From positions 287 through 64,286 of the forward strand of contig JARBUG010000010.1 of NCBI GenBank assembly GCA_029239785.1: a stretch of 64,000 nt of DNA, written 5' to 3'. Of this stretch, positions 11,035-63,203 are shown one piece after another. The notes under the pieces are model-generated. The model saw nothing but the letters and a program-made list of their open reading frames with translations, did not search any database and was not told where the DNA came from. How positions within the stretch are numbered: position 1 is the stretch's first letter; each line of letters opens with the position of its first letter. The DNA comes from Symbiobacteriaceae bacterium. GTDB taxonomy: Bacteria > Bacillota > Sulfobacillia > Symbiobacteriales > Symbiobacteriaceae. Made by a program: the position numbers and the translations under genes.

Positions 11035-11041
11035 GATTTCG

Positions 11042-11080
11042 GGAGGGGCCACCGGTTTGGTGGCCCCTCCTGCCATCTTT
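11042..11080 (+). terminator. Intrinsic terminator
   Basis: 12-bp stem GGAGGGGCCACC / GGTGGCCCCTCC, then a T-containing tail. Confidence 0.6.
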
Positions 11081-11144
11081 ACATCCACCAGCAGGTTCAG
11101 TAGCATGAGAATTGTTTGACGGCCAACCACCGGAGGAACTCCAC

Positions 11145-17628: not shown

Positions 17629-17772
17629 TAGACCCTCTCGGCATGGGCCGGTCAAGCTTTGGCCCACGCCTGCCGGGCTACGGCACCCATTGAGGGTGCC
17701 TAGACCCTCTCGGCATGGGCCGGTCAAGCTTTGGCCCACGCCTGCCGGGCTACGGCACCCATTGAGGGTGCC
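17629..17772. repeat. Perfect 72-bp tandem duplication (2 copies) in the pheS-pheT spacer
   Basis: 17629..17700 is identical to 17701..17772, and the next 4 nt (TAGA) begin a third unit. The unit contains the hairpin GGCACCC-tcaa-TGGGTGCC. Confidence 0.95.
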
Positions 17773-26698: not shown

Positions 26699-28369
26699 CT
26701 AATTGACCCGCAGCGCCCGAATCTGGCGGCTTAGCTCGACGAACTCGGCGTTCACCCGCTCCTTCTCCCCCTCGGGCGCCCGGGCCAGCTCATGCCCCAG
26801 GCAGGCCAGCCGCATTTCGAGCAAGATGCGCTGCGCCTGCCGATCCACGTCCCCCCCGCCCCGGGTGAACTCCTCGTACCCGCCCCCAAAGGCCGACAGC
26901 TTTCCGCCGTTCACGCTGATCACCCGGGTCGCCACCCGCCGCAGCAAATACCGGTCATGCGAAACCAACAGCAACGTGCCCGGGAAGGACTCCAGTGCCT
27001 CCTCCACCCGCTCGCGGGACGGCAAGTCCAGGCCGTTGGTCGGCTCATCGAGCACCAGCACGTCGGGCGCCGACAGCAGAATCTTCGCGAGCGCCAGCCG
27101 CACCCTCTCGCCGCCGCTCAGGACGGCGACCGGCTTCAGCACATCCTCACCCGAAAAGAGCAGGCACCCCAGAAGCGAGCGGGCATACGCCTGATCCATG
27201 GCCGAGTTGCCCGTGGCCTCGGTCAGCACGGAATTCGAAGGACCCAACGCCGAAAGCTCCTGCGCCAGATAGGCCACCCGCCGGGGCGAGCAGTAGAGCC
27301 GCCCCTCGGTAGGCGCCAGCTCCCCGAGCAGCAGTCGGAGCAGCGTCGTCTTGCCAGCGCCGTTCGGGCCGACGATCGCCACCTTCTCTCCGCGCTGCAC
27401 GTAGAAACCGGCGTGGCGGAAGAGCCAGCGGGCGCCGTCGTACGTGAAGCCCAGGTTCTCGGCCAGGACCAGATTCCGCCCACCGGCCTCGCCGCCGCCG
27501 TCAAGCCGCAGGTTAATCGATCGTGCCTCGCGCGGCCGATCAACCCGGAGCCGCTCAATTCGCTTCTCCATGTTCTTGACGCCCTTCCAGAGGTCGCGGG
27601 CAGCATCCTTGTTCATGCCGAGCTGCACCTTGCCTTCGGTACGGGGCGGCTTATCGTTATGCGCTTTCACCGCCCACTCCATCTGGCGGCGAATCGCCTC
27701 CTCCAGGCGTTTCTTCTCACGCACGTAGTTCCGGTACTCGCTTCTCGCCCGCTCCAGTTCCATCTGCTTTTGCCGGGCGTACGCCGAGTAATTGCCGGGA
27801 TACGCCCTGACCTGCCCCTGATCCATCTCTAAAATGCGGGTGGCAACCCGGTCCAGGAAGTAGCGGTCGTGGCTGACCACCAGTACCGTCCCCCGGTATG
27901 CGGAAAGGAGCGACTCCAGCCAGGCCAGACCGTCGGTGTCGAGGTGGTTGGTCGGTTCGTCGAGCAGGAGCAGATCGGCCCTTCCCGCCAGGGCCCGGGC
28001 CAGGGCGGCCCGGGTCTTCTGTCCGCCGCTCAGCCGCCCCGGCGTGCGGTTGAGCAGCGAACGGCTGATGCCGCACTTCGCCAGCAGCTCATCCGAAACA
28101 GCGCCCATCTGCTCGGCCAGCGGCACGTCGGGCGCCCAGGCACCGTCCTGGCTCAGGTAGGCCCGGGAAAGCCCGGGCGTCACCCAGGTCAAAGACCCGC
28201 CATCGGCGGTCATCTCGCCGGCGAGAATCTTCATGAACGTCGATTTGCCGCAGCCGTTGGCGCCGACGAGACCAACCCGCTCGCCACCGGCCAGGTGGAA
28301 CGTAACGCCGGTCAAGACCGGCATCCCCTGATACGCTTTGATCACTTGATTCGCTTGTAAGACCATCAT
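26699..28369 (-). CDS. ABC-F family ATPase (ribosome-protection/ARE-like)
   Basis: Two ABC cassettes (GANGCGKST/LSGGQKTR and GPNGAGKTT/LSGGERVR), a long charged inter-domain linker and no TMD. Confidence 0.9.
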   Translation of the reverse strand: MMVLQANQVIKAYQGMPVLTGVTFHLAGGERVGLVGANGCGKSTFMKILAGEMTADGGSLTWVTPGLSRAYLSQDGAWAPDVPLAEQMGAVSDELLAKCGISRSLLNRTPGRLSGGQKTRAALARALAGRADLLLLDEPTNHLDTDGLAWLESLLSAYRGTVLVVSHDRYFLDRVATRILEMDQGQVRAYPGNYSAYARQKQMELERARSEYRNYVREKKRLEEAIRRQMEWAVKAHNDKPPRTEGKVQLGMNKDAARDLWKGVKNMEKRIERLRVDRPREARSINLRLDGGGEAGGRNLVLAENLGFTYDGARWLFRHAGFYVQRGEKVAIVGPNGAGKTTLLRLLLGELAPTEGRLYCSPRRVAYLAQELSALGPSNSVLTEATGNSAMDQAYARSLLGCLLFSGEDVLKPVAVLSGGERVRLALAKILLSAPDVLVLDEPTNGLDLPSRERVEEALESFPGTLLLVSHDRYLLRRVATRVISVNGGKLSAFGGGYEEFTRGGGDVDRQAQRILLEMRLACLGHELARAPEGEKERVNAEFVELSRQIRALRVN

Positions 28370-28686: not shown

Positions 28687-30387
28687 TCAATCCGATCGGC
28701 GGTTCTCTTTCAGTTGGCGCAGTTCACGGCTCACCGCGATGAACTCCTGGTCGAGCCGCTCCTTCTCCTCGGGCTTTGGCGCGATCAGCGCCGCCGACAA
28801 CTGGGCGAGGCGGTTCTCCAGCAGCAGCCGCCGCTCCTCGTCGGCCTGGCGGCCGGCATGCTGAGCGGCATCCGCCCGCCCGAGGAATGCTTCATACCCG
28901 CCGCTGAACGACGTGACCCGCGCGCCCTCCACATGCAGCACCTTCGAAGCCAGCTTCCGCAGCAAATACCGGTCGTGCGAGACCAGCAGCAGCGTGCCGG
29001 GGTAGCCTTCCAGCGCCTCTTCCACCCGCTCGCGGGACGCCAGGTCGAGGCCGTTGGTCGGCTCGTCGAGGACCAGCAGGTCGGGACCTGCCAGCAGAAT
29101 CTTCGCCAGCGTCAGCCGGATCTTCTCCCCGCCGCTAAGGACCGACACGGGCTTGAGCACCTGCTCCCGGGAAAAGAGCAGGCAGCCCAGCAGCGTGCGG
29201 ACGTAGGCCTGATCCATGGCCTTGTTGCCCCCCGTCACCTCGGTCAGGACGGTGTTTTCGGGGTTCAGGTGCTCCATCTCCTGGGCGAGATAGGCGACCC
29301 GCAGGGGCGAGCGGTAGAGCGTGCCTTCGGTCGGGGCCAGTTCGCCCAGAATCAGGCGGACCAGCGTCGACTTGCCGGAGCCGTTCGGCCCGATAATGGC
29401 CACCTTTTCGCCTCGCTGCACATAGAACCCGGCGTCACGGAAGATCCAGCGCTGGCCGTCATAGGTGAAGCCGAGGCGCTCGGCCAGGATCAGGTTGCGG
29501 GCGGCGCCGCCGGCATCATCCATGCGGATGTTGATCCGGGTCGCTTCCCGGGGCTTCTCGACCTTGATGCGCTCCAGGCGCTTCTCCATCGACTTGGCGA
29601 CCTGCATGTGCGCCTTGGCCAGGGCGCCCTGGTAGGGCCGCCAGTTGGGCGGCGCATCGTGCGGGGGCTTGAAGTTGACGTTAGCCTGCGCCCACGAAGT
29701 CTGGCGGCGAATCGCTTCTTCCAGGTGCTTCTTCTGCACCACGTACTGCCGGTACTCCTCCTGGGCCCGCTCCAGTTCCATCCGCTTCTGCTCGGCGTAG
29801 GCCGAGTAGTTGCCGGGGTACTCCTTCACCTTGCCGTTCTCCATCTCGATGATGCGGGTGGTGACACGGTCCAGGAAGTACCGGTCGTGGCTGACGACCA
29901 GCACGCTGCCCCGGTAGGAAGTGAGCAGTGACTCCAGCCAGGCCAGGCCCTCGGTGTCCAGGTGGTTGGTGGGCTCGTCGAGCAGGAGCACGTCCGGCGA
30001 GCGGTGGAGCGCACGGGCCAGGGCGGCCCGGGTCTTCTGGCCGCCGCTCAGGGCGCCGGGTTTGCGGGAGAGCATCTCCCGCGTGATGCCGCAGCGGGCG
30101 AGCAGGGCGTCGGGAATGGATTTGAGCTGCCGGCCCAGGGTCTGGCCCGGGTCGAAGGGCGCCTCCTGGCTCAGGTAGGCCCGGGAGAGGCCATCGGTCA
30201 CCCACCGGATGGACCCCGACCCGTGCGCCAGCTCGCCGGCGAGGATCTTCATGAGCGTTGATTTTCCGCACCCGTTGGTGCCCACGAGGCCGACCCGCTC
30301 ACCCCCGGCCACGTGAAACGTGACGCCGCCGAGCACGGGAGCGCCTTCATATTCCTTGATCAGATCACGTACTTGCAGAACCATCAT
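28687..30387 (-). CDS. ABC-F family ATPase (paralog, ARE-like)
   Basis: ATG 30387 (MMVLQVRDLIKEYEG). GTNGCGKST/LSGGQKTR and GPNGSGKST/LSGGEKIR. The track start at 30534 reads into the leader. Confidence 0.9.
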   Translation of the reverse strand: MMVLQVRDLIKEYEGAPVLGGVTFHVAGGERVGLVGTNGCGKSTLMKILAGELAHGSGSIRWVTDGLSRAYLSQEAPFDPGQTLGRQLKSIPDALLARCGITREMLSRKPGALSGGQKTRAALARALHRSPDVLLLDEPTNHLDTEGLAWLESLLTSYRGSVLVVSHDRYFLDRVTTRIIEMENGKVKEYPGNYSAYAEQKRMELERAQEEYRQYVVQKKHLEEAIRRQTSWAQANVNFKPPHDAPPNWRPYQGALAKAHMQVAKSMEKRLERIKVEKPREATRINIRMDDAGGAARNLILAERLGFTYDGQRWIFRDAGFYVQRGEKVAIIGPNGSGKSTLVRLILGELAPTEGTLYRSPLRVAYLAQEMEHLNPENTVLTEVTGGNKAMDQAYVRTLLGCLLFSREQVLKPVSVLSGGEKIRLTLAKILLAGPDLLVLDEPTNGLDLASRERVEEALEGYPGTLLLVSHDRYLLRKLASKVLHVEGARVTSFSGGYEAFLGRADAAQHAGRQADEERRLLLENRLAQLSAALIAPKPEEKERLDQEFIAVSRELRQLKENRRSD

Positions 30388-30435
30388 ACAGGGCAACGCC
30401 TCCGAGTTTGGGCTCTGCCCGCCTGCTTGACAGCA

Positions 30436-30466
30436 CAAAAAGACCATGGGCAAGTACCCATGGTCT
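30436..30466 (-). terminator. Leader attenuator terminator of ABC-F gene 2
   Basis: AGACCAUGGG-uacuug-CCCAUGGUCU followed by UUUUGUG. Confidence 0.65.
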
Positions 30467-30561
30467 GTTGGTTTGCGCGCTTGCAACCGTGCGCAACGCA
30501 GACGGGACCGGCCTAACTTGCGCGACGAACCCACTTCGGTAGGTGCCGTCGCCGTATACAG

Positions 30562-30585
30562 TTAGCGCGCGGTGTTGTTGATCAC
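30562..30585 (-). CDS. 7-codon leader peptide MINNTAR (GTG start)
   Basis: GGAGGU lies 8 nt before the GTG; 8 codons including the stop. Confidence 0.5.
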   Translation of the reverse strand: MINNTAR

Positions 30586-30608
30586 GTCTGCGTACCTCCG
30601 GCTTTGCC

Positions 30609-31253
30609 TCAAGATTTCACTTCATGATATGCCGCCGGGGCGTAGCCTGTCAACAGGGAGAGCGCCAGCACCAAGACCCAAAGCTCAAACCCGCCAATCG
30701 TCATCCGTTCGAAGATGCCGAAGTAGGGCGATTTCAGGGCCATGCCCGCCGTCGACATGCCGCCGGTGATGAAGACGAAGAGGGCGTTCCACACGGCGAA
30801 CCGGCGCAAATGCTGGAGCGGCAGGTAGCGCCGGGCGCCGGCCCCGGTCAGGAGCATCGTCAGGATGGTGAGAACGGCGGTGCCGAGGGCGAGGATCAGG
30901 TGAACGGTGCCGGCGGTGGTCGGGGCGCTGCCGATGGGGTCCTGCGGGAAGAAGTACATGAGCAGGCTCAGAATCGGTACGACGGTAAGCGCCAGGGCGG
31001 CCCCGACGAGGGTGCCGGGGCGGCGGGCGGCGGTGACCTCCCGGAGCAGGCCGGCGGCAAAGGCGAGGAGCAGGCAATTATAGAGGATGAAGCCGGGGTC
31101 GATCTTCCAGCGGAGCGGAGCGCCCGCCTCGACCAGTGAGCTGATGGCGTGGGCGACGTGGCTGTAGCCCGGGGTAATGGCGGCGCCATAGATGACGGTA
31201 ACGACGTAAGCGATGGGAGCCAGGATGCCGCAGGTCAGGTAAAGCTTGCGCAT
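30609..31253 (-). CDS. Polytopic membrane protein, DUF998-like
   Basis: 214 aa. AAAGGAGA RBS. The N-terminus ...AITPGYSHVAHAISSL resembles the DUF998 signature. Confidence 0.55.
   Translation of the reverse strand: MRKLYLTCGILAPIAYVVTVIYGAAITPGYSHVAHAISSLVEAGAPLRWKIDPGFILYNCLLLAFAAGLLREVTAARRPGTLVGAALALTVVPILSLLMYFFPQDPIGSAPTTAGTVHLILALGTAVLTILTMLLTGAGARRYLPLQHLRRFAVWNALFVFITGGMSTAGMALKSPYFGIFERMTIGGFELWVLVLALSLLTGYAPAAYHEVKS
30624..30653 (-). promoter_or_regulatory. SigA-type promoter of ABC-F leader 2
   Basis: TTGACA, 18 nt spacer, TATCAT, overlapping the 3' end of the upstream CDS. Confidence 0.45.
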
Positions 31254-31286
31254 GGTGATACGTCTCCTTTGATGTGGCGGCCCCGC

Positions 31287-31754
31287 TCAGCTCCGAGCGA
31301 ACCGCAGGCGAAGCTGCTGGGCCAGTGAAAGGTGGTGGGGCTTGGACAAGAGGTACTGCAGCGCCAGGGCGAGCACGGGGTTGGCGAGGGTGCTCATGCT
31401 GAACGGGCTGCTGCCCATGAGGAAGATGATGCCCATGATCAGGCCCACCTGGGTGCGGCGCCCACTTGCAAGGATGAGCAGGCCGACGGTGGTCTCGTAT
31501 GCGACAGCGATCACGCCGAAGAGGACCGGTGCGGCGCCAACGAGATCCGTGAAAATGGTGCGGTAGAACGGAATGAACGATCCGCTGCCCAGGCCTACGA
31601 AGGAAGGCGGGTCCATCAGTGTGATGGTGAAGTTGACGCCCCAGGCCATAAGCAGGAAGAAGATGCCGAGAAAGATGCGGCCGGCGTTGGGCTTCCAGAG
31701 TGCGAGTGCCAGGATGGTCGCGTAAACGAGCAGGGAGACGAGCAACTGTTCCAT
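31287..31754 (-). CDS. 4-TM membrane protein, unknown function
   Basis: 155 aa. A GGAGGA RBS is embedded in the end of the upstream gene. Confidence 0.6.
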   Translation of the reverse strand: MEQLLVSLLVYATILALALWKPNAGRIFLGIFFLLMAWGVNFTITLMDPPSFVGLGSGSFIPFYRTIFTDLVGAAPVLFGVIAVAYETTVGLLILASGRRTQVGLIMGIIFLMGSSPFSMSTLANPVLALALQYLLSKPHHLSLAQQLRLRFARS

Positions 31755-31760
31755 GGTGGG

Positions 31761-32168
31761 TTATCCTCCAATCAAATAGAGCGATCCGTCGGTCAGGCGA
31801 TAGATGGTGGAACCAAGGGCGGCGATCTCCGGGTCGGCGGTGGCGAGGATGACGGTTCGGGCCACCGGTACGCTTTGGGTCATGGCGTGGGTGGGTTCGT
31901 CAAGCAGCAGCAGATCGGGCTGCAGGTCGTTGGTGGTGAGGCCGGTGATCAGGCGGCCTTCGTAGTACAGGTCGCCGTGTGTGGGCGGCTCCTGAAGTCC
32001 CAGAATCCGGAGCAGGGTGCTCTTGCCGGCGCCCGGGGCGCCCAGAATGGTGATGAAGTCGCCGGCGTAGATGCGGAGGTCGATGTTGCGCAGTGCCCAG
32101 ACGGGGTCGGGGCCGTCGGGGCGGTGGACCTTTGCGATGCGGCAAGCCTGCATGAGCAGCTTCCGCAT
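31761..32168 (-). CDS. Internally deleted mini-ABC ATPase (Walker A and Walker B retained; Q-loop, signature and most of the H-loop region missing)
   Basis: GAPGAGKSTLLRILG and LLLLDEPT lie only ~35 aa apart. There is no LSGGQ. The start is uncertain (ATG 32168 or 32153; the track gives 32198). Confidence 0.55.
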   Translation of the reverse strand: MRKLLMQACRIAKVHRPDGPDPVWALRNIDLRIYAGDFITILGAPGAGKSTLLRILGLQEPPTHGDLYYEGRLITGLTTNDLQPDLLLLDEPTHAMTQSVPVARTVILATADPEIAALGSTIYRLTDGSLYLIGG

Positions 32169-32176
32169 GGGCGGTT

Positions 32177-32248
32177 TCACCGGGCTGCCGGCGCCCACCC
32201 GTAGATGGCGGCCGGCAGAGTGGCGAGGTTGCCGATGATTGCTTTCAT
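32177..32248 (-). CDS. 23-aa peptide ORF MKAIIGNLATLPAAIYGWAPAAR
   Basis: GGAGG lies 9 nt before the ATG. It is the first ORF after the repeat-containing promoter. Below the ORF-track cut-off. Confidence 0.4.
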   Translation of the reverse strand: MKAIIGNLATLPAAIYGWAPAAR

Positions 32249-32279
32249 GTGTTTGCGCCTCCGTGTGTGATCTGGGTTC

Positions 32280-32322
32280 AGATTAAGGGAGGGCGCTGAA
32301 CAAGTGCTGAAGGAGCGCTGAA
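32280..32322 (-). promoter_or_regulatory. Promoter with three direct TTCAGC(G/A)C repeats at 11-bp periodicity (SARP/OmpR-type activator site)
   Basis: Minus strand TTCAGCGC tcc TTCAGCAC ttg TTCAGCGC, starting at 32322, 32311 and 32300. The heptamer TTCAGCG ends 8 nt before TAATCT (32285..32280). Confidence 0.45.
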
Positions 32323-32357
32323 AAGAGAAAACCGCACCCATGTTCAGTGGGTGCGGT
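32320..32357 (-). terminator. Intrinsic terminator of the ABC-exporter operon
   Basis: ACCGCACCCA-cugaaca-UGGGUGCGGU followed by UUUCUCUUUUC. The stop codon lies in the loop. Confidence 0.75.
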
Positions 32358-34110
32358 CGCCCTCCAGGATGGCCCGGAACTCATCGGAAGCGGCCAGCAG
32401 CTGCGGGGCGGTACCGATCATCTCCACCCGCCCCTGGCTCATCAACAGAATCTGATCTGCCGCCTCCAGCACCGCCGGCCGGTGGGAGACCGCCAGGCAG
32501 GTTGTTTCTTTGCGCGCCCGCAGCCGCTCCCACAGTTTCTCCTCCGTCTCCTCATCCAGGGCACTGGAGAGATCATCAAAGACGAGCAGCTCCGGTTCCC
32601 GCACAAACATGCGGGCGGCGGCAGTTCGCTGCACCTGCCCGCCCGACAGCTTCACGCCCCGGGCGCCCACCTCGGTCTCCAGCCGTTTCTCCAGACCTGC
32701 CACATCCTGCTCCAGCACGGCGGCGTGCACGGCCCCGGCCAGATCAGCCTCCGCCTCGGGCAGCCCGAGCAGAATGTTCTCCTTCAGCGTGGCGCTGAAG
32801 AGCACAGGCACCTGCGGCGTGTAGCTGCTAATGGGCGGCTGGAAGAACGAACCCGGGTGGTCAACCACGCGGCCGTTCCAGTGCACCGCTCCACCCTGTG
32901 CGGGCAGCAGCCCCAGCAGCGCCCGCAGCAACGTGCTTTTCCCGGAGCCAACCCGGCCGGTGATCACCGTCAGCGTGCCGCGGGTGAGCGTGAACGTGGC
33001 CCCCCGGACGCCCCGCCCCGAGTCCGGGTACTCGTAGGTCAGGTCCTCCACCTCCAGCCGGTTCAGCCGCTCCTCCGGCTGAAGTGAGCGCCGGTGGCGC
33101 TCCGGCAGGGGAGTATCCAGATAGAGCGGGCTATGCGCCGCCAGGGCCACAGCCGGCGCATCCTCCAGCAACGCCTGCATCCGCCGTAAGGAGACACCCA
33201 TCTGCTTGTAACTGGCCAGCAGATCGCCTACGACGCCGGTAAACCCCGCCAGCCGCCCGACATAGGCCGCAAACAACGCAAAGTCGCCCACAGTAAAGGT
33301 GCCGGACCGCATCGATCCCGCCGCCAGCAACAGTACCAGGCCCGTGCCCAGGTTGGCGGTGTTCAGATAGACCGACCGGAGCAGCTCGGTGAACAGGCTG
33401 TCCTGCACGGCATGGGCCCGCCGCTGGTCTCCCAGACGGCGCAGGTGGCCGGCCACGTTCGCCTCGGCGCCGGCCAGCTTCAGCGCGGGCACCATGGTGA
33501 AAATCTCGCCGAGCATCCCCGTCACCCGGGCGGCGGCGGTCCGGCTCCGGTCGCGGTACCGGCCGATTCGCTGTCCCGCAGCCTTTGCCACAATCATCAC
33601 CCCGACGAGGGGCAGCACGGCCGCAACCGTCACAAACGCGTTGATATGTAGCATGAGCCCCAGCGTGACGCCTGCGCTCAAGGCCTCGGCGACGGCGCTG
33701 ATCACTGTGATCATCGAAGCGAACAGCGCTACGGCGTCGGCATCGTCGCGAAAGCGGCTGATCGCATCGCCGGTCGACCCGGGCAGGGCCCGGGCGCCGG
33801 GCCGGCGCAGGATCTGCTCCAGCATATTGGTAGTGAGCAGTGCGCTGACCGTAAAGCGCTGGAGCACACTGACGGGCACGCTGAGCCAGGTAACCAGCAG
33901 GCGCCCGCTCTGCACGGCGACGGGCAGCACGGCCAACAGCCAGAGGCTGTCTAGAGCCGGTGCGCTGCCCGACAGGGCATTGAAGAAGGACCGGGCCACC
34001 AGACCGAGCCCGGTCGGCGTCAGGGAGATCAGCACCCAACTGAGAAAGCAGGCGGCCACCAGCCAGGGCCGGTATGCCAGCAGGCGGAGCACAGTTCGCC
34101 ACGGTTTCAT
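32344..34110 (-). CDS. ABC exporter, fused TMD-NBD subunit
   Basis: 588 aa. GRVGSGKSTLL, LSGGQVQR and LLVFDDLSSALD, with an N-terminal 6-TM domain. Confidence 0.9.
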   Translation of the reverse strand: MKPWRTVLRLLAYRPWLVAACFLSWVLISLTPTGLGLVARSFFNALSGSAPALDSLWLLAVLPVAVQSGRLLVTWLSVPVSVLQRFTVSALLTTNMLEQILRRPGARALPGSTGDAISRFRDDADAVALFASMITVISAVAEALSAGVTLGLMLHINAFVTVAAVLPLVGVMIVAKAAGQRIGRYRDRSRTAAARVTGMLGEIFTMVPALKLAGAEANVAGHLRRLGDQRRAHAVQDSLFTELLRSVYLNTANLGTGLVLLLAAGSMRSGTFTVGDFALFAAYVGRLAGFTGVVGDLLASYKQMGVSLRRMQALLEDAPAVALAAHSPLYLDTPLPERHRRSLQPEERLNRLEVEDLTYEYPDSGRGVRGATFTLTRGTLTVITGRVGSGKSTLLRALLGLLPAQGGAVHWNGRVVDHPGSFFQPPISSYTPQVPVLFSATLKENILLGLPEAEADLAGAVHAAVLEQDVAGLEKRLETEVGARGVKLSGGQVQRTAAARMFVREPELLVFDDLSSALDEETEEKLWERLRARKETTCLAVSHRPAVLEAADQILLMSQGRVEMIGTAPQLLAASDEFRAILEGDRTH

Positions 34111-35777
34111 CCTGCCACCACCTCCTCCGGGCCGGACTGGAGCGACAGGACCTGCCCGGCACGCCGCAGTGTCGACAGCCTGTGGGCAATAAGGATCGCT
34201 GTCCGGCCCAGGAGGAGCCGGTCGATGGCCTGCTCCAGCCGCTGTTCGGTAACGGGGTCGAGCCGGGAGGAGGCCTCATCCAAAATGACGAGGCCCGGAT
34301 CTTTCAGGAAGACACGTGCGAAGGCGAGCAGCTGGGCCTCGCCCGCCGAGAGGCCGCCGCCAGATGCCAGCTCGGTATCGAGGCCGTTAGGAAGGGAGGC
34401 CGCCCACTCCCGCAGGCCCAGCTCATCGAGTGCCGCCCAGATGCGGCTGTCGGCGACGGTGGCATCGAACAGGGTCAGGTTGTCGCGCAGAGTGCCGCGG
34501 AAGATCTGCACTTCCTGGGTCACCACGCCCACCCGCCGGCGCAGGTCGGCGAGGCGGACCGAGCGCACATCGACGCCACCGAGGCGGATGCTGCCGCCGA
34601 CCGGGTCATAAAGGCGTGCCACCAGCCGGGCAAGGGTCGATTTGCCGATGCCGGTCCGCCCCCGCACGCCCAGCACCTCGCCGGGCTTCAGGGCAAAGGA
34701 GAGGTTCTCGAGCACGGGCACCCCGGGGATATATCCAAATGTCAGGCGGTCGACTGCGAGGGCCAGCGGCCCGTCGGGCAGCGGCGCCCCCTCCCCGTGC
34801 ACCGCCAGAGTGCTGCGCATGGCCAGCAGGTCGCCAATCCGGCTGATGCTGGCGCCGGCCCGGGCCAGGTCCTGCATCTGTTGGACGATCTGTTCGGTGG
34901 GACGCCGGAGTTGCTCCGTATAAAAGAAGATCATGTAAGCAGTGCCGACCGAAATGGCGCCCGCCCGTACCAGCGCAAGCCCGACGCCAAAGGCCGTGGA
35001 CGTGCCCACCGCCAGCAGCCCGAAGGAGACGACCAGCATGATGGCCATGCCGCGGCCGGCCTTCAGCTCGGCCTGCAGCCGGGTGCGAAGTGCCTGTACA
35101 AAGCCCAGTCGGACAGCGTGCTCGGCGCCGTTGGCCCGAATCTCCTCCAGCCCCGCCAGCCGTTCGCCCAAATAGCCGAAGAACTGGCTGCTGGCCTGCC
35201 GGGACGCCTGCCAGCCGGGCATGGCGCTGTGCCGGGTGCGCAGCAGCACCGTCAGGTGAAGCGCGGCGAAGCCCGACAGTGCCAGACCCGCCCGCCAGTC
35301 CACCGTGTAGAGAACTGCCAGGACGCCGGCCAGCAGGAGTGCGTTGGCGGCCACCTGCACCACGAAGGCGGAGAAGAAGTTGGCCAGCGGGGTCACGTCG
35401 CCATCGATGCGTTCGATCATTTCGCCGGCGGTGCGGTCCTTGTGATAGGAGAGATCGAGTCCCAGGAGATGCTCGGTCAGCTCGGCGCGCAGTTCGTTGG
35501 TCGCCCGCCAGCCGATCTCCTGACCGAGATACGTGGCCCACAGCGCCAGCAGTTGGTTGGCGATGGCCAGACCCAGGAAGAGCGCTGCCAGGGCGAGCAG
35601 GCGCAGGCCCGGCGTACCGGCCCCCGCCTGGTCAATAAACCGCTGGAGAACCGTGGGATAGTAAAGTTGCAGCCCGATGCCAGTCAGCAGCAAAATTCCC
35701 AGCAGCAGTACTTTCGGCCCCTGCGGCCGCAGGTATCGGCGCAGCAGGCGCCAGTATTGGGTCAGGGGGATCGACAT
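34107..35777 (-). CDS. ABC exporter, fused TMD-NBD subunit (heterodimer partner)
   Basis: 556 aa. GRTGIGKSTL, LSAGEAQL and LVILDEASSRLD. ATGA overlap with the downstream partner. Confidence 0.9.
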   Translation of the reverse strand: MSIPLTQYWRLLRRYLRPQGPKVLLLGILLLTGIGLQLYYPTVLQRFIDQAGAGTPGLRLLALAALFLGLAIANQLLALWATYLGQEIGWRATNELRAELTEHLLGLDLSYHKDRTAGEMIERIDGDVTPLANFFSAFVVQVAANALLLAGVLAVLYTVDWRAGLALSGFAALHLTVLLRTRHSAMPGWQASRQASSQFFGYLGERLAGLEEIRANGAEHAVRLGFVQALRTRLQAELKAGRGMAIMLVVSFGLLAVGTSTAFGVGLALVRAGAISVGTAYMIFFYTEQLRRPTEQIVQQMQDLARAGASISRIGDLLAMRSTLAVHGEGAPLPDGPLALAVDRLTFGYIPGVPVLENLSFALKPGEVLGVRGRTGIGKSTLARLVARLYDPVGGSIRLGGVDVRSVRLADLRRRVGVVTQEVQIFRGTLRDNLTLFDATVADSRIWAALDELGLREWAASLPNGLDTELASGGGLSAGEAQLLAFARVFLKDPGLVILDEASSRLDPVTEQRLEQAIDRLLLGRTAILIAHRLSTLRRAGQVLSLQSGPEEVVAG

Positions 35778-35789
35778 GGCCGGTTCCTC

Positions 35790-36821
35790 CTAACGGGCGG
35801 GGTGCGGTTCCTCGCCAGGGCCATCCAGAATGCGGCGGGCCGCTTCGATCCCATCGGCCGGGGCCACCCATTCGCCCGGCTGCCTGACCCATGGTTCAGT
35901 CACATAGAAGGGCTGCTTGAGAAAGGCCTCCAGGCGCTCGCCCCGCCGGTAGGTCAGCACTTCGGCGTCGGGAATGCGCTCGATGCCGCGCACCCGGGCC
36001 AGGGCGTGCAGTTCCCGGTACCGCCGGTAGAGCCTGCGGGCCCGCTGCTGGAGCGTCATGTGCGTCTGGTCGGCGTAGGCCCCTTCGAGGATGATCGATG
36101 TGGAGCCAACCGGGTCGATGGCCGGGAAGACGCTCCGGGCCGCCAGGTCGGCATCGAAACGCCAGAGTGTCTCCAGGGGGCCGTAGGGAACCTCTTCATC
36201 CGGCGACTCGCCGCGGGGGTCGACCAGTGCGAAGGTGACCGCATGGCCCGCCCCCCCGGCGAGGCGGGCACGGAGTTCGTCCAACTCCCCGGAAAGGACC
36301 ATCGCCCGGTCGGTCGCCACGAGGACTTCTCTGTCTTTCTGCCAGGCCTTGACCTGTTCTTCCGCCGCCGCCAGGGAATGGGCCACCACCTCTGCTTCGG
36401 GGAGGACGTCCTGAAGGTCAGGATGAAACTCGGCGGGCAGCCAGAGCACCGTGCCATACCCACGCTGGCGGAGCCGGTGGAGCAACTCGGAGAGCACGAC
36501 CATCTGGCCCATGCCTGTGCGGGCGACCAACCCGACGGTGCCCCCCCGCACCAGTGGTGCGAACAGGTCGATCACTTTGATGCCCGTCTCGACCATGGTG
36601 GAACCGGGCCCCCGTATCACCAGGTCGTCCAGCGTGCACCCGGCCAAATCGGCCAACGCGACCAGGGTTCGGACTTCGGCACGCCCGAGCGGAATCTTGC
36701 CGTTGCACAGGTCGGAGACGGTTGCGGAACGCAGGCCCACACTGCGGGCGGCCACCGTCAGGTTCGGGACCAGGCGCCGCAACAGTTGTACGTTGAGTTG
36801 CAGGTCATCAGCCAAGACCAA
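35790..36821 (-). CDS. XRE-type HTH fused to a degenerate F1-ATPase beta-subunit-like domain
   Basis: HTH: SVGLRSATVSDLCNGKIPLGRAEVRTLVALADLAG. Beta-like blocks: ETGIKVIDLFAPLVRGGTVGLVARTGMGQM (P-loop GGAGVGKT lost), SVFPAIDPVGSTS and FLKQPFYVTEPW. Start is probably TTG 36821 or 36815. Confidence 0.75.
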   Translation of the reverse strand: MVLADDLQLNVQLLRRLVPNLTVAARSVGLRSATVSDLCNGKIPLGRAEVRTLVALADLAGCTLDDLVIRGPGSTMVETGIKVIDLFAPLVRGGTVGLVARTGMGQMVVLSELLHRLRQRGYGTVLWLPAEFHPDLQDVLPEAEVVAHSLAAAEEQVKAWQKDREVLVATDRAMVLSGELDELRARLAGGAGHAVTFALVDPRGESPDEEVPYGPLETLWRFDADLAARSVFPAIDPVGSTSIILEGAYADQTHMTLQQRARRLYRRYRELHALARVRGIERIPDAEVLTYRRGERLEAFLKQPFYVTEPWVRQPGEWVAPADGIEAARRILDGPGEEPHPAR

Positions 36822-36848
36822 CCCCCCCTTTCCTCTGTAGCGTAACTC

Positions 36849-36858
36849 AACGTACGTT
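36849..36858. promoter_or_regulatory. Perfect 10-bp palindrome AACGTACGTT (candidate operator)
   Basis: It lies between TTGCAT (-35-like) and TACGCT (-10-like), upstream of the HTH-beta gene. Confidence 0.3.
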
Positions 36859-36897
36859 ACAATGCAATCCCATTGAAAGACATAGCTGCTATGCGCG

Positions 36898-36924
36898 AAA
36901 AAGACCGCCGGAATGCCGGCGGCC
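36898..36924 (-). terminator. Intrinsic terminator after the STAND-SARP gene
   Basis: GGCCGCCGG-cauu-CCGGCGGUC followed by UUUUU. Confidence 0.7.
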
Positions 36925-36938
36925 CTCGTCACGGCCTG

Positions 36939-39683
36939 CTAGTCCAGCAGCCGTCGGTAGAGTTCCTGGGTGCGGGGGCCGGGTTCGAGGCCCAGTTCAT
37001 CGTCGAGCAGGCGGGCGATGGTGCGGTATTGCTGGAGCGCCGCACTCCGATTGCCCAGGGCGGCGTAGGCGGTCATGAGGCCGAGGTGTGCTTCTTCATC
37101 CAACGGGTCGACTTGCAGCAGGAGTTGCAGCGCTTGGGCGGCGTCAGCGTGGCGGGCGGCGGCGGCGCAGTGGACAGCGATTTGGCGCAGGGTCTGCTGG
37201 TAGAGCAGGCGGGCGCGGGCACGGGGCGCCGCTGCCCATGGGTAGTCGAGTCCTTCGGCCAGGTCGCCGCGGTATAGGTCGGCCGCCTTTCGCCAGTCGG
37301 TTTCCGCTTCGGCAGCAGCGAGTTGTTCAAACTGCTCAATGTCAACCGTCAGGTTGGTGCGCTCCATGCGGTAGGCTCCGCCGGCGAAGGTGACCAGCCC
37401 CTCGCCCGGGGCGCCCAGGGTGGAGCGGAGGTTGTAAAGCGTGGTGTGGAGCAGGGTGCGGGCGGCGTCGAAGTCGAGGTCGGGCCAGAGGGCTTCGATC
37501 ACCTGGTCGCGGGGGATGGGGCGGCTGCCCTGCAGCACGAAGTAGGCGAGCAGGTCCCTTGCCTTGGTGGTGCGCCACCGGGGCAGGGGGCGCCCGCCGA
37601 TGGTGACGGTGATGGGGCCCAGCAGGGAGACGGTCAGGCGCGGGGTGGTGCTTTCAGCAGCAGATGCGGAGCCGGGGGCTGGGGTTGTGGCTGCGGCCCC
37701 GGCTCCGGCGGGCTCGGCGGTTGCTGCGGCGGGTGTTGCCCGCAGCAGGGCCTGATAGGCCAGGAGCGCAGCGTCCCTCACCGCAGGGTCATCATCATGC
37801 AACAGGCTGCGGACCGCCTCCGTCGCCGCTTCCCCTCCGGTTACGGACAACGGATAGAGTGCAGCCTGCCGAGCCCGGGGCTCTGGCTGACGGGTCATCT
37901 CCAGGAGCGCCGGCAGCGCCCGCCCACCCATCCGGATGAGTAACTCCTGGCAGAACGGTGCCTCCACGCCCCGAGCCAGGGCGTCCGCAATCAGCCCCGC
38001 CGCCGCCACACGGGGAGCGACCAGGTGCTGCAGATACCCTTCGGCCGCGGCGTATCCCAGCGCCCTGTCAAACGAGCGCCGGGCCTCATCCAACTTGCCT
38101 TCGGCCCAGGCCTTGCGGGCAAAGAGCGTCAGTAGATAATGCAGATAGAAGTTCGCTTCGATCGATGAATGATAGGCAAACGAGGCGACGAGCAGGCGCT
38201 CGGCCGCAGCGTGGTCGCCCCAGGCGACCAGCGCAGCCGCCAACACCATGCCGGTGCAGGCTTCCAGAAAGCGGAACCGGCCACGGGCGGTTCCATAGGC
38301 CGCTTCGGCCAGGCGCCGGAAGGTGGGCATATCGCCGCGGGTCGCCGCCACCAGCGCCCGCTGGCAGGTGGCGGTGATGCCGATGGGCAGGTTGGCCGAG
38401 AAAGTCTGGTGGAGACGCTCGGCCTCGCTTAGGTGCTCCTCTGCCTCCTCAAGGCGGCCCCGGTCCAGAGAGACCTCTCCATAGGTCAGGTGGGCCATGG
38501 CCAGGGCGGTCAGGTCGCCCCGGTTTGCCCGGGCCTCCAGGCAGCGGCGGGCCAGGGCCTCCGCCTCGTCGAGGCGTCCCTGATCGCGCAGGAGGATGAC
38601 TTTGCTGTGGGCGCCCGCCAGTTCGAGCATGGGGTCGATCTCAAACGCCTGCCGATACCACTCCGTAGCGAGCGCGTACTGCCCCAGCACGACGCTGATC
38701 TCCCCCAAGAGCATGGCGGCTGCGGCCATGACGGGCCGGTCGCCGCGGCCCCGGGCGGCGTCCCATACGACGGTGGCCCGCTCGCGGGCCGCGGGCGGGT
38801 GGTCGCAGTAGAGCATGTGAATCTCGCCCAACTCGGTCCAGAGTTGCTCGGCGCCAGGCTGTCCCACGGAGAACTGGTGGGCGAAGGCTGTGAGGCTGAG
38901 GTTGCCGGCGAGCCATTCGCCCACCAGGCTCTTGGCAATTTCGGTGGGGACGTGGCCGGGCAGTTCGGCCAGCATCCGGGAGGTGATAGCTGGCCGCCAG
39001 CCGGCGCCGTGCTGGCGCCAGAGGTCCAGGGCCAGGGGGAAGCCGCCCGTTTTGGTCCAGCACTCTTCCCAGTCGGACTGGGCGCCCAGGAGCGCCGACG
39101 CCTCCTGCCGCGTGAAGGCCAGGTCGGCTGCCAGCAGGGTGCGGCAGTCGGCGCCCGGGTCGACGGGAAGGGGCGCCCGGGTGCTGAGGAGAAGGTGGAG
39201 TTCAGGCGGGGCGTAGCGGAGGAGTAAGGTCAGGAAGTCGGCGAGCCAGGGCTGGCCGAAGGCGGCCTCCAGGCCGTCGAGGGCGAGGATGATGGGGGGG
39301 CGGACGGCGGCCTCGGCGACGAGGTCGGCGGCGAGGTCGGCCACCGGGGCCGGGGCCACCGGGGCCGGGGCCACCGGGGCCGGGGCGCCGACCTCGGGCA
39401 CTGCCCAGTCCGGCCAAACCCGTGCGAACGCCGCACCCAGATGCACGACCAGGGCGCCCCCGCCCTCCCTGTCCTGCGCATCCAGCCGGTAGTAAACGAA
39501 GGGCAGCCCAGTGGCAGGCAACCACTGGGCCAGGAATGCGGTCTTCCCTGCGCCGGCCGGCGCTTGCAGCAGCAGCGCCCGGGGCGGGGCGCCGACGGCA
39601 TCGAGCAGCCGCGGCCGAGGGAGATACCCTGCGCAAGATGGGAGCATCAGCTTGGTGCGAAAGATCCGCTGCACGACGTTCAC
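36939..39683 (-). CDS. MalT-like STAND ATPase - TPR - HEAT - C-terminal SARP (OmpR-type wHTH + BTAD) regulator
   Basis: N-terminus RTKLMLPS..PRPRLL..LLLQAPAGAGKTAFLAQW. HEAT-like LLHDDDPAVRDAALLAY. C-terminus LLGPITVTIGGRPLP..KARDLLAYFVL..LYRGDLAEGL..AHLGLMTAYAALGNRSAALQQY (SARP/BTAD hallmarks). Confidence 0.8.
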   Translation of the reverse strand: MNVVQRIFRTKLMLPSCAGYLPRPRLLDAVGAPPRALLLQAPAGAGKTAFLAQWLPATGLPFVYYRLDAQDREGGGALVVHLGAAFARVWPDWAVPEVGAPAPVAPAPVAPAPVADLAADLVAEAAVRPPIILALDGLEAAFGQPWLADFLTLLLRYAPPELHLLLSTRAPLPVDPGADCRTLLAADLAFTRQEASALLGAQSDWEECWTKTGGFPLALDLWRQHGAGWRPAITSRMLAELPGHVPTEIAKSLVGEWLAGNLSLTAFAHQFSVGQPGAEQLWTELGEIHMLYCDHPPAARERATVVWDAARGRGDRPVMAAAAMLLGEISVVLGQYALATEWYRQAFEIDPMLELAGAHSKVILLRDQGRLDEAEALARRCLEARANRGDLTALAMAHLTYGEVSLDRGRLEEAEEHLSEAERLHQTFSANLPIGITATCQRALVAATRGDMPTFRRLAEAAYGTARGRFRFLEACTGMVLAAALVAWGDHAAAERLLVASFAYHSSIEANFYLHYLLTLFARKAWAEGKLDEARRSFDRALGYAAAEGYLQHLVAPRVAAAGLIADALARGVEAPFCQELLIRMGGRALPALLEMTRQPEPRARQAALYPLSVTGGEAATEAVRSLLHDDDPAVRDAALLAYQALLRATPAAATAEPAGAGAAATTPAPGSASAAESTTPRLTVSLLGPITVTIGGRPLPRWRTTKARDLLAYFVLQGSRPIPRDQVIEALWPDLDFDAARTLLHTTLYNLRSTLGAPGEGLVTFAGGAYRMERTNLTVDIEQFEQLAAAEAETDWRKAADLYRGDLAEGLDYPWAAAPRARARLLYQQTLRQIAVHCAAAARHADAAQALQLLLQVDPLDEEAHLGLMTAYAALGNRSAALQQYRTIARLLDDELGLEPGPRTQELYRRLLD
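39341..39385. repeat. 3 x 15-bp in-frame tandem repeat (APAPV x3) inside the regulator gene
   Basis: CCACCGGGGCCGGGG repeated three times. Confidence 0.9.
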
Positions 39684-56315: not shown

Positions 56316-56407
56316 GGCAGTTATTTCGCCGCGGATTTCGCGGATTACAGTAGAATCCGCGTTTGGCTTTAAAATCCGCGAAATCAGCGAAATCCGCGGC
56401 TAAATAT
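56304..56407. repeat. CGCGGAT-family element, short copy (A end + 8 nt + B end)
   Basis: A 44-45-nt A end (one C indel aside, identical to 55651..55694) and a B end (56357..56407). It overlaps the last codons of the GxxExxY gene. Confidence 0.7.
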
Positions 56408-63180: not shown

Positions 63181-63203
63181 CACTGAGAACCCCCAACACC
63201 AGC

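Follow-up and report, generated by a model that had tools for sequence, protein, structure and literature searches.

SARPs are usually described as regulators of actinomycete antibiotic clusters in which the SARP module is N-terminal (PMC10936776, PMC10972967, PMC11301090), and in all of the SARP classes set out in PMC10972967 the module is N-terminal and any extra domains are C-terminal. The published rule for their promoters comprises direct repeats 11 (or 22) bp apart, of which the 3' repeat lies 8 bp from the -10 element (PMC10936776), and the same heptamer, 11-bp, and 8-bp grammar is given in PMC10972967. Sites with three heptamers have been described for both ActII-ORF4 and DnrI (PMC10972967). 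At the afsS promoter, the poor -35 element overlapped by AfsR is TTCAGC, and the downstream repeat extends from -29 to -19 (PMC10936776). The SARP domain of AfsR retains activity when isolated from the rest of the protein (PMC10936776).

This study analyzed a 64,000-nt stretch of DNA, referred to as the window, from a metagenome-assembled genome of Symbiobacteriaceae (Bacillota) and compared one of its promoters with these systems. Judged from sequence comparison, the SARP promoter grammar is conserved in this Bacillota family, where it stands beside a regulator of opposite domain order. As in the afs box of the "large" SARP AfsR of Streptomyces coelicolor, we found a TTCAGC core and repeats in 11-bp phase that overlap or replace the -35 element, the proximal one lying 8 bp from a weak -10 element; the putative activator, similar to AfsR, combines an OmpR-type winged helix with BTAD. 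The systems differ in that AfsR uses two repeats rather than three, belongs to Actinomycetota, whereas the host of the window is not a Streptomyces, and acts on afsS or a biosynthetic cluster, whereas the target in the window is a small membrane-protein operon. ActII-ORF4, DnrI, and RedD resemble the locus in their three heptamers with 4-nt spacers and 8 bp to the -10 element, and in the placement of a dedicated regulator beside a single target (PMC10972967); they differ in that they are proteins of ~300 aa with the SARP module only, use a TCGAGCG-like heptamer, and belong to actinomycete antibiotic clusters.

The promoter region of the window contains the following features.

32321 to 32358, minus strand: intrinsic-terminator-like hairpin CCGCACCCA ... 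TGGGTGCGG followed by a T-run (-24.6 kcal/mol, z = -5.0)
32316 to 32322, minus strand: heptamer repeat 1, TTCAGCG, predicted at -49 to -43, conserved in alignment A2
32305 to 32311, minus strand: heptamer repeat 2, TTCAGCA, predicted at -38 to -32, where a -35 element would be
32294 to 32300, minus strand: heptamer repeat 3, TTCAGCG, predicted at -27 to -21, 8 nt from the -10 hexamer
32280 to 32285, minus strand: -10-like hexamer TAATCT, from direct reading and alignment A2
32273 (+/-2 nt), minus strand: predicted transcription start, the A in a conserved CAGA, from afsS promoter geometry and alignment A2
32258 to 32262, minus strand: Shine-Dalgarno sequence GGAGG, 9 nt before the ATG at 32248, conserved in all loci
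32177 to 32248, minus strand: relic ORF MKAIIGNLATLPAAIYGWAPAAR of 23 sense codons plus a stop (TGA at 32179-32177)

Direct reading of the minus strand revealed that the heptamers start at 32322, 32311, and 32300, a spacing of exactly 11 nt, and that the 8-nt gap between repeat 3 and TAATCT is CCCTCCCT (32293-32286). No -35 element was found: the hexamers located 16-18 nt upstream of TAATCT (GCACTT, AGCACT, and CAGCAC) match TTGACA at no more than two of six positions, and a sigma-70 scan did not detect a promoter at the repeat site. The anatomy recorded in a first-pass annotation of this DNA, namely three TTCAGC(G/A) repeats at 11-bp spacing, 8 nt between the last of them and TAATCT, a missing -35 box, and GGAGG with a 9-nt spacer before the ATG of a 23-codon ORF, was thus reproduced exactly. 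We placed the transcription start at 32273 because the downstream afsS repeat spans -29 to -19 and because CAGA is conserved in alignment A2; the predicted leader would be ~25 nt long. On the basis of the comparisons described below, we consider it likely that the TTCAG(C/T)(G/A) triple is the operator of a -35-less, activator-dependent promoter under the regulator encoded at 39683-36939, and that the short ORF is a vestige.

The possibility of a chance arrangement was examined in three ways. The two-repeat pattern without mismatch has a single occurrence in the 64-kb window, and the heptamer triple with period 11 and at most one mismatch occurs nowhere else in it; such a triple appeared in 8 of 200 Markov-simulated windows (~0.04), and by itself it is only modestly unlikely by chance. 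Cross-locus conservation, in contrast, settles the reality of the arrangement at the level of the DNA sequence. Each of the 11 related loci examined has between three and five heptamers phased at 11 bp, with 8 nt between the final heptamer and a hexamer of the form xAxxxT, and the repeat motif occurs once per locus (loci of 14-64 kb). The promoter grammar stays among these loci even as the neighboring genes and the short ORF vary. Nine loci (the TTCAG group) retain a set of three TTCAG heptamers together with the 8-nt gap and the xAxxxT hexamer, with an information content of 1.93 bits at the TTCAG positions versus 1.1-1.3 bits in the spacers. The -10-like hexamer in relatives reads TAGTCT, TAAGCT, TATCCT, CATACT, TACGCT, TAAAGT, TAGACT, or TAGAGT. 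Identity between the window and its relatives is 85.7% over the promoter and 73-81% in the adjoining coding DNA.

The more divergent loci retain the 11-bp phase and the 8-nt rule with an altered heptamer sequence. L089 and L090 each contain four heptamers and keep the 8-nt gap to the -10 element, and the paralogue L097 contains five, the last of which, TTGAGCG, lies 8 nt from TACGAT before a MacB-type ABC operon. A second paralogue, L096, was not counted as support: although repeats can be recognized there, they include a 23-nt spacing, and the -10 element is poor. Independent lineages also show the 8-nt distance: among 57 metagenomic TTCAGCG triples that are non-tandem and from high-GC DNA, xAxxxT lies exactly 8 nt downstream in 29 and at 9 nt in 9, and every other offset accounts for three or fewer. 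Five metagenomic TTCAGCG triples lie beside classical AfsR-type SARP genes, and one (L209) neighbors the gene of a further ATPase protein whose C-terminus is a BTAD domain.

The repeats might instead be a functionless 11-bp microsatellite remnant beside a constitutive promoter. Plain 11-bp tandem arrays account for 51 of the 136 metagenomic pattern matches, and the ~0.04 obtained for the triple alone in one window is consistent with such an origin. The heptamer cores, however, are conserved whereas the 4-nt spacers vary, the number of copies (three) and their distance from the -10 element are fixed in loci that share only 50-70% protein identity, and no -35 element is present to support constitutive activity. 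We regard this explanation as highly improbable; the SARP-promoter reading appears well supported by the published rule and by the conservation across loci.

We then turn to the regulator, for which two features are listed.

36939 to 39683, minus strand: regulator gene, 914 codons from GTG (911 aa in the NCBI annotation)
36945 to 37652, minus strand: coding part of the SARP module, residues ~678-913, aligned over its full length to EmbR 6-255 and AfsR chain 33-283

The encoded protein consists, in order, of a Walker-A ATPase (GAGKT, ~43-49), a MalT-like TPR region (~299-555), a HEAT region (~588-647), a disordered linker, a winged helix, and BTAD. Pfam assigned Trans_reg_C (the OmpR-type winged helix) to residues 705-773 and BTAD to residues 789-913, and a phmmer comparison of the C-terminal ~240 residues with PDB matched EmbR (2FEZ, E = 1.5e-18) and AfsR (8HVR, E = 5e-12). 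In NCBIfam, residues 673-913 match positions 19-266 of the AfsR model, with a score of 64 bits that is far below the cut-off of 1430 bits, and residues 18-199 match positions 14-195 of the MalT model (E = 3e-11). TPR_MalT was matched in Pfam, as was AAA_16, weakly. The best PDB folds for an AlphaFold2 model of the protein (pLDDT 89.5) were the EmbR and AfsR SARP structures (8K60 and 8HVR; TMt 0.73-0.76), and its other fold matches were STAND-TPR (6MFV) and MalT domain III (1HZ4). A search of the protein for a GerE/LuxR-type helix-turn-helix output domain returned no match. The SARP-domain regulator that the first-pass annotation had placed 4.6 kb upstream is therefore borne out by the Trans_reg_C and BTAD domains, by the EmbR and AfsR matches, and by the predicted fold. 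Alignment and model indicate that its C-terminus is a true SARP module and that this module is placed C-terminally, not N-terminally, on a MalT-like ATPase-TPR protein.

This order is the reverse of that of AfsR, which runs SARP, NB-ARC, and TPR, whereas the order here is MalT-like ATPase, TPR, HEAT, and SARP. Both proteins nevertheless contain an ATPase and TPRs, and gating by nucleotide or oligomerization is plausible here as well (PMC10936776). The regulator also resembles MalT and the LALs (large ATP-binding LuxR-family regulators) in its N-terminal STAND ATPase, TPR-like sensor, and C-terminal DNA-binding domain; those proteins use a LuxR-type helix-turn-helix and MalT boxes, in contrast to the SARP module and SARP operator grammar of this locus. 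Literature searches on Symbiobacterium with SARP and on BTAD, STAND, and MalT did not find such an architecture described in the papers covered, and a search on BTAD/SARP outside actinomycetes found nothing relevant. The conserved DNA contacts of the AfsR winged helix include Q48, W74, P79, T88, R94, and K95. In a sequence alignment of the residues equivalent to the DNA contacts of AfsR, W74, T88, and R94 are kept, and P79, K95, and R92 are replaced by F, S, and N, respectively. A recognition code at the R92 position was considered, given that within the family TTCAG boxes go with N, and other boxes with H, H, or Y; it was ruled out by the A in L209 and the Q in the AfsR-type L106 and L214, all of which have TTCAG boxes.

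The regulator and the promoter are linked in every related locus with readable upstream DNA. The distance from the end of the orthologous regulator gene to the promoter downstream of it is 0.1-0.8 kb in L001, L004, L005, L007/L008, L089, L090, L091, L092, and L095. The linkage is weaker in the window than in these relatives because the regulator gene ends 4.6 kb upstream of the promoter and is co-directional with three inserted genes, which separate it from the hairpin preceding repeat 1.

Another winged-helix regulator of the PhoP/PhoB type could bind the repeats, in which case the adjoining SARP-type gene would be unrelated to them. The pho boxes of PhoB/PhoP, to which tandem winged-helix domains bind, consist of 7-bp direct repeats separated by 4-nt spacers and take the place of the -35 element, and the promoter described here shares the repeat length, the spacers, and the replaced -35 element. 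Direct repeats in 11-bp phase are general to the binding sites of the OmpR family, and the AfsR and PhoP boxes overlap at afsS; these likenesses and the 4.6-kb distance in the window would suit a regulator encoded elsewhere. Pho boxes, however, serve a phosphorylated response regulator with a regulon, whereas here a single operon has the box, found once per 14-64 kb of locus, and the box moves together with a SARP-type gene. Regulator and promoter have remained adjacent through several rearrangements, down to ~40% identity of the downstream ATPase, and the heptamers change along with the divergent regulators of L089, L090, and L097, which is unexpected for a shared global regulator. In addition, a family profile detected the regulator at 39683-36939 as the only SARP-like ORF in the 64-kb window, with no other winged-helix ORF. 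We consider binding by a PhoP/PhoB-type protein quite unlikely and continue with the linked SARP-type regulator as the candidate activator.

The operon downstream of the short ORF comprises the following features.

31761 to 32168, minus strand: truncated ABC-type ATPase, 135 aa, without its own Shine-Dalgarno sequence
31287 to 31754, minus strand: 155-aa membrane protein of no named family
30609 to 31253, minus strand: DUF998 membrane protein, 214 aa, the last operon gene, assigned by domain match and conserved in L002, L004, L005, and L091
30441 to 30466, minus strand: terminator-like hairpin with T-run closing the operon

The ATPase contains Walker A and Walker B (LLLLDEPT) and lacks the signature motif and the helical subdomain; its H-loop position is A, and its Pfam match is limited to positions 1-50 of the ABC_tran profile. 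By this set of motifs, the gene product is not a canonical ABC transporter ATPase. An exhaustive search for the 155-aa protein yielded ~196 representative relatives, of which 10 were tested for Pfam domains and none contained one. Family searches with the 155-aa protein, the DUF998 protein, and the 130-aa protein described below returned no informative family, and a search for defence systems (PADLOC) returned only trivial P-loop matches.

The short ORF comprises nt 1-19 and nt 341-393 of a 130-codon membrane-protein gene, separated by a 321-nt in-frame gap. The gene is intact in the closest relatives and is present in L095, L091, and L005, and a pairwise DNA alignment with that of L095 yielded 17/19 and 48/53 identities around the single 321-nt gap. 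The peptide keeps 6 N-terminal and ~17 C-terminal ancestral residues. In other lineages, remnants of 40, 32, or 27 codons were found, with deletions of ~270, 294, and 309 nt and distinct breakpoints. All of the remnant deletions are in frame (for four of four, p ~0.012 by chance), and all remnants end at the ancestral stop codon. In L002 and L092, the ORF is wholly absent and the same Shine-Dalgarno sequence is joined to the ATPase start, with the promoter and the rest of the operon intact. These alignments show that the 23-codon ORF is the product of a single 321-nt in-frame deletion in the original first gene of the operon.

The first-pass annotation had placed the ORF product in the size and hydrophobicity range of signaling pro-peptides or small membrane peptides. 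A functional peptide of this kind would fit the good Shine-Dalgarno sequence and ATG, the hydrophobicity of the 23-residue product, and the fact that the remnants keep the reading frame and a C-terminal W-A-P-A-A-R. It accords poorly with the derivation of the ORF by deletion from a 130-aa protein, with remnants that differ in length and content (40, 32, 27, and 23 aa), and with the absence of the ORF from L002 and L092. The conserved 3' end of the relic coincides in part with the region where translation of the next gene is initiated, and this overlap is sufficient by itself to explain the conservation. We therefore consider a functional peptide quite unlikely. The earlier proposal of a SARP promoter driving a peptide is thus divided: its promoter grammar and regulator hold through the published rule, the SARP module, and the linkage, whereas the peptide gives way to a deletion relic found at 130, 40, 32, 27, 23, or 0 codons in related loci.

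The relic ORF probably survives only since its translation brings ribosomes to the next gene. It resembles translationally coupled upstream ORFs, short reading frames that have a Shine-Dalgarno sequence and terminate within a few nucleotides of the start of a gene without one: 8 nt separate its stop codon from the ATPase ATG downstream. It differs from them in that it arose from the in-frame collapse of a full-length gene, with different lineages showing different stages. The coupling is uncertain because Met6 (32153), the start chosen by NCBI, may be where the ATPase begins; a weak GGAAG lies 6 nt upstream of it. A hairpin inside the relic ORF was considered as a coupling structure and rejected; it is conserved, but its covariation is almost nil (term +0.17) and confounded by coding constraint. 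For the region 30300-32600, a search for a riboswitch or leader RNA returned no Rfam match better than E = 0.94.

Taken together, these findings suggest the following mechanism. The activator would be a signal-gated, MalT-like ATPase-TPR-HEAT protein with a C-terminal SARP output. By analogy with the AfsR initiation complex, we infer that its SARP modules would bind side by side on one DNA face, one per 11-bp repeat, with the promoter-proximal protomer at -27 to -21 and the next one over the missing -35 element. The protomers would jointly hold sigma region 4 and the polymerase ("sigma adaptation"), and sigma-A RNA polymerase would then open TAATCT and start near 32273. To our knowledge, all demonstrations of SARP action have used actinobacterial polymerase and HrdB, and the transfer of this action to Bacillota sigma-A is our assumption. 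The resulting transcript would encompass the relic ORF, the truncated ABC ATPase, the 155-aa membrane protein, and the DUF998 membrane protein. The relic ORF keeps the ancestral Shine-Dalgarno sequence, start, frame, and stop, and its likely remaining role would be ribosome delivery to the ATPase start.

More tentatively, MalT-like regulators ending in a SARP module may form a distinct class that performs sigma adaptation with Bacillota sigma-A. STAND oligomerization driven by ATP or ligand might load three modules on the three repeats, and the relic might be a selected minimal coupling ORF whose sole function is ribosome hand-over; we find this broader proposal rather doubtful as a whole.

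If the proposed mechanism is true, the grammar of repeats, 11-bp phase, and 8-bp distance could be carried over to metagenomes as a predictor of SARP targets, and dozens of candidates have already been recovered from them. The locus would also provide a compact system of one regulator and one promoter in which sigma adaptation could be tested with a non-actinobacterial polymerase, and it would indicate that a SARP module can serve as the output domain on a MalT-type chassis. The relic series (130, 40, 32, 27, 23, and 0 codons) clearly illustrates, in nature, how a small ORF can be born of gene decay, and it cautions that a short ORF with a Shine-Dalgarno sequence is not always a peptide gene.

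The terminator-like hairpin, which the first-pass annotation did not contain, abuts repeat 1 on its 5' side and may shield the promoter from upstream read-through. The same hairpin lies 3' of the regulator stop codon in L001, L004, L091, and L095, and other hairpins occupy the equivalent place in L002, L005, L007, and L090. A 54-codon ORF from the ATG at 32341 was considered and rejected; it lacks a Shine-Dalgarno sequence, starts in the hairpin, and runs across the promoter. In the window, the ABC exporter gene upstream has its stop codon (32346-32344) inside the hairpin loop. The loop sequence is CTGAACA, which contains TTCAG in inverted orientation.

We read the minus strand directly over 31900-32600 and found the elements reported by the first-pass annotation: three repeats whose starts are spaced by exactly 11 nt, 8 nt to TAATCT, and GGAGG with a 9-nt spacer before the ATG of a 23-codon ORF.

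Features of the promoter, its operon and the regulator gene (heptamers placed by direct sequence reading)
39683-36939, minus strand: regulator gene, 914 codons
32358-32321, minus strand: hairpin with T-run (-24.6 kcal/mol, z = -5.0)
32322-32316, minus strand: heptamer repeat 1, TTCAGCG
32311-32305, minus strand: heptamer repeat 2, TTCAGCA
32300-32294, minus strand: heptamer repeat 3, TTCAGCG
between repeat 3 and the hexamer, minus strand: 8-nt gap, CCCTCCCT
32285-32280, minus strand: -10-like hexamer, TAATCT
32262-32258, minus strand: Shine-Dalgarno sequence GGAGG, 9-nt spacer, then ATG at 32248
32248-32177, minus strand: small ORF MKAIIGNLATLPAAIYGWAPAAR, 23 codons (ATG 32248, TGA 32179-32177)
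32168-31761, minus strand: truncated ABC-type ATPase, 135 aa, with Walker A and Walker B and without the signature region
31754-31287, minus strand: membrane protein, 155 aa
31253-30609, minus strand: DUF998 membrane protein
30466-30441, minus strand: terminator downstream of the DUF998 gene

The absence of a -35 box, also claimed previously, was borne out: the hexamers located 16-18 nt upstream of TAATCT shared at most 2 of 6 positions with TTGACA, and a consensus scan revealed no sigma-70 promoter at the heptamer site. The hairpin, which the annotation had not included, abuts repeat 1 with its 3' end; the upstream ABC exporter gene runs with its last codons into this conserved hairpin and has its stop codon inside the loop.

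In SARP target promoters, direct repeats lie 11 or 22 bp apart and the 3' repeat is 8 bp from the -10 element; the poor -35 element of the afsS promoter reads TTCAGC and lies within the upstream AfsR repeat (PMC10936776). In the AfsR complex, each repeat holds one of two SARP protomers bound side by side; these touch sigma region 4, the beta flap, the beta-prime zinc-binding domain and the alpha-CTD, an arrangement termed 'sigma adaptation' (PMC10936776). Three-heptamer operators are known for ActII-ORF4, DnrI and others (PMC10972967). On the afsS geometry, repeat 3 of the window promoter would occupy -27 to -21, repeat 2 would lie over the missing -35 and the -10 would span -12 to -7, with a predicted transcription start at A32273, part of a conserved CAGA. 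The window promoter shows every defining feature of a SARP-dependent promoter that could be tested. The prediction that the heptamer site is a SARP-type activator-dependent promoter is supported by strong comparative evidence, with the phylum, the domain order of the regulator and its original position corrected. The comparison with Streptomyces held for the promoter grammar but not for the host, as the family Symbiobacteriaceae belongs to Bacillota, class Clostridia. The truncated ATPase encoded behind the small ORF has 100% identity to a protein of a Symbiobacteriaceae MAG, and the G+C content of the window is ~65%.

Within the 64-kb window, the two-repeat pattern without mismatch and the period-11 heptamer triple with at most one mismatch occurred at this site only, and such triples arose in 8 of 200 Markov-simulated windows (p ~0.04 from the window alone). 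The question of chance was settled not by this statistic but by conservation across related loci, in each of which the heptamer triple occurs once. The loci compared came from contigs that carry genes for truncated-ATPase relatives (39-72% identity), plus one contig found via a 130-aa membrane protein. Their upstream DNA shares one plan, in which a hairpin is followed by heptamers in 11-bp phase, an 8-nt gap, an xAxxxT hexamer and a leader of ~30 nt with GGAGG. The alignment of promoter-region DNA revealed three TTCAG-type heptamers in nine loci, with 1.93 bits at the TTCAG positions versus ~1.1-1.3 bits in the spacers, at heptamer positions 6-7 and in the 8-nt gap. The window promoter was 85.7% identical to that of L095 or L091, versus 73-81% for adjacent coding DNA. 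In the most divergent loci the heptamers differ but the phase and the 8-nt rule are kept, as in L090 (TCAAGTG, TCATGAG, GAAAGTG, TAAAGCG; 8 nt; TAGACT) and L089 (TTGAGCC, TTAAGCA, TCATGAG, TTCAGAC; 8 nt; GATGAT). At L097, the gene for a regulator paralogue (50% identity) is followed by a MacB-type ABC operon, whose promoter carries five TT-heptamers, the last being TTGAGCG, 8 nt from TACGAT; at the locus of a second regulator paralogue, L096, the promoter was ambiguous.

The loop of the terminator hairpin (32341-32347, minus strand) reads CTGAACA, an inverted TTCAG. Its start precedes repeat 1 by 25 nt in five loci (the window, L001, L004, L091 and L095) and by 14 nt in L005, despite a different stem there, so that the offsets differ by exactly one 11-bp turn; it was not present in L002, L007 or L092. 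This inverted TTCAG could be an additional site for the regulator, or it could be coincidental.

In L001, L004, L005, L007/L008, L089, L090, L091, L092 and L095, the promoter follows the end of the orthologous regulator gene at a distance of 0.1-0.8 kb, and ABC exporter genes lie between the two only in the window and L002. The SARP-domain regulator previously placed upstream does exist as the gene at 39683-36939, with Trans_reg_C and BTAD domains, but, as gene order indicates, it originally adjoined the promoter, and exporter genes now intervene. The order going upstream is two ABC exporter genes, a 380-aa F1-ATPase beta-like fragment and the regulator gene. The exporter genes (32344-35777, minus strand), each encoding a fusion of membrane and ATPase parts, are inserted before the promoter hairpin, and a similar pair precedes the L002 promoter (L002 1-3359). 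The 380-aa ORF (35790-36932, minus strand), whose GTG start overlaps the regulator stop codon, matches F1-ATPase beta in pieces only: its C-terminus corresponds to atpD model positions 318-436, and a short P-loop stretch lies near residue 117. This fragment may have degenerated or been put to another use.

Pfam identified TPR_MalT (299-555), HEAT repeats, Trans_reg_C (705-773) and BTAD (789-913) in the regulator, and its N-terminus carries a Walker A motif (GAGKT) with a weak AAA_16 match. Residues 18-199 matched the NCBIfam MalT model, and residues 673-913 matched positions 19-266 of the NCBIfam AfsR model; against PDB sequences, residues 678-913 matched EmbR (E = 1.5e-18) and the AfsR SARP domain (E = 5e-12). 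The AlphaFold2 model (pLDDT 89.5, built on 23 family members) has a disordered linker, residues 649-675, before the last domain. Its best structural matches were EmbR and the AfsR SARP protomers of transcription initiation complexes 8K60 and 8HVR (TM on target 0.73-0.76); a STAND-TPR protein and MalT domain III were also among the matches. On the basis of these sequence and fold matches, the regulator combines a MalT-like ATPase-TPR-HEAT chassis with a C-terminal SARP module that serves as its output. It has the domain content of the SARP family but not the usual domain order, which is the opposite in AfsR and in all SARP classes listed in PMC10972967. Full-length relatives form ~24 clusters, and all those with a source name are from Symbiobacteriaceae; other proteins of 1050-1200 aa with an ATPase, TPR repeats and a C-terminal BTAD exist elsewhere, for example in Dehalococcoidia. 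Literature searches returned no description of a MalT-like ATPase with C-terminal SARP architecture, and the window contains no other SARP-like ORF. A 15-bp perfect tandem repeat of 3.2 copies inside the regulator gene (39339-39386) encodes a APVAPAPVAPAPVA linker, the low-confidence segment of the structure model (residues 97-106) within the ATPase domain.

The 23-codon ORF had been proposed to encode a signalling pro-peptide or small membrane peptide; it is instead a remnant left by gene decay. The first gene of the operon in L095, L091 and L005 encodes the 130-aa membrane protein, with N-terminal MK(A/L)L(I/L)GIL and C-terminal W(A/M/T)PA(A/T)R, an orphan of five clusters without a Pfam or NCBIfam family. 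The window ORF matches the L095 gene in two segments (nt 1-19, 17/19 identical; nt 341-393, 48/53) separated by a single 321-nt gap, and is therefore an in-frame deletion derivative. Remnants in L004 (27 codons, ~309 nt deleted), L001 (32 codons, 294 nt) and L007/L008 (40 codons, ~270 nt) are likewise in frame and end at the ancestral stop codon, which lies 8 nt upstream of the ATPase ATG (11 nt in L005). That all four partial deletions are in frame has a chance probability of ~0.012, their independence being judged by breakpoints and not by phylogeny. In L002 and L092 the small ORF is gone and its Shine-Dalgarno sequence directly precedes the ATPase start. Because the remnants are variable and the ORF is completely lost in some loci, a peptide function seems unlikely. 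The in-frame deletions and the lack of a Shine-Dalgarno sequence at the ATPase ATG (32168) suggest that selection keeps ribosomes terminating beside this ATG, that is, translational coupling. Alternatively, the ATPase might start at Met6 (32153), where NCBI annotates it and which has a weak GGAAG upstream. A hairpin within the relic ORF is conserved but gave no useful covariation.

The truncated ATPase family comprises ~14 ABC-like clusters of 128-164 aa, which keep Walker A and Walker B, whereas the Q-loop-to-signature region has been lost, as has the H-loop histidine; the 155-aa membrane protein gene is always next downstream. In L001, a gene for an Rce1-like (CPBP) membrane protease (10938-11777) replaces the DUF998 gene at the operon end, with serine-recombinase genes and PrkA gene fragments all around. 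Two proteins of ABC-F type (ABC_tran, ABC_tran_Xtn, ABC_tran) are encoded just downstream of the window operon, at 26699-28369 and 28687-30534 on the minus strand; because L005 and L007 have these neighbours too, they represent conserved synteny outside the regulated unit. Searches with Rfam, PADLOC and protein families yielded no additional lead on the system.

An exact scan of metagenomes for TTCAGCG-N4-TTCAGYR-N4-TTCAGYR returned at least 120 contigs, many of the matches being plain tandem arrays. Among the 57 non-tandem matches in high-GC contigs, xAxxxT lay exactly 8 nt downstream in 29 and at 9 nt in 9, with at most 3 at any other offset from 0 to 29. In five of these contigs, a classical AfsR-type large SARP gene (N-terminal winged helix and BTAD, then NB-ARC and TPR) is divergent from the box. 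In L209 (56% G+C), the gene for a 1123-aa protein with an N-terminal AAA_16 and a C-terminal BTAD adjoins a box reading TTCAGCG, TTCAGTG, TTCAGTG; 8 nt; TACACT; GGAGG; ATG. Counting the AfsR-type contigs and L209, SARP-module genes occur together with the box grammar in at least three separate lineages. In the five AfsR-type contigs (L104, L106, L117, L131 and L214; 67-71% G+C), TTCAGCG is repeated three times at 11-bp spacing, with 8 nt to (C/G)A(G)nnT and a conserved GGGTCTTAGCACGAT upstream of the repeats; such a pairing of SARP gene and target is probably widespread in actinobacteria.

Other repeats were present in the window. Three-copy arrays of a 9-mer (CGCGGATTT; complement GAAATCAGC/GAAATCCGC) lie at 55676-55704 and 55803-55830, and also at 8050-8082 and 56372-56398; the arrays, inverted relative to one another, flank an AT-rich core of ~100 bp. 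Similar GGATTACAC arrays occur in L005 (9385-9500), between the regulator gene and the promoter, and the 9-mer arrays look like a family-wide repeat element. A perfect tandem duplication (72 bp, 2.1 copies, 100% match) lies at 17629-17776, and GC-rich tandem arrays lie at 59927-60054 (24-bp unit, 5.3 copies) and 63042-63181 (14-bp unit, 9.8 copies).
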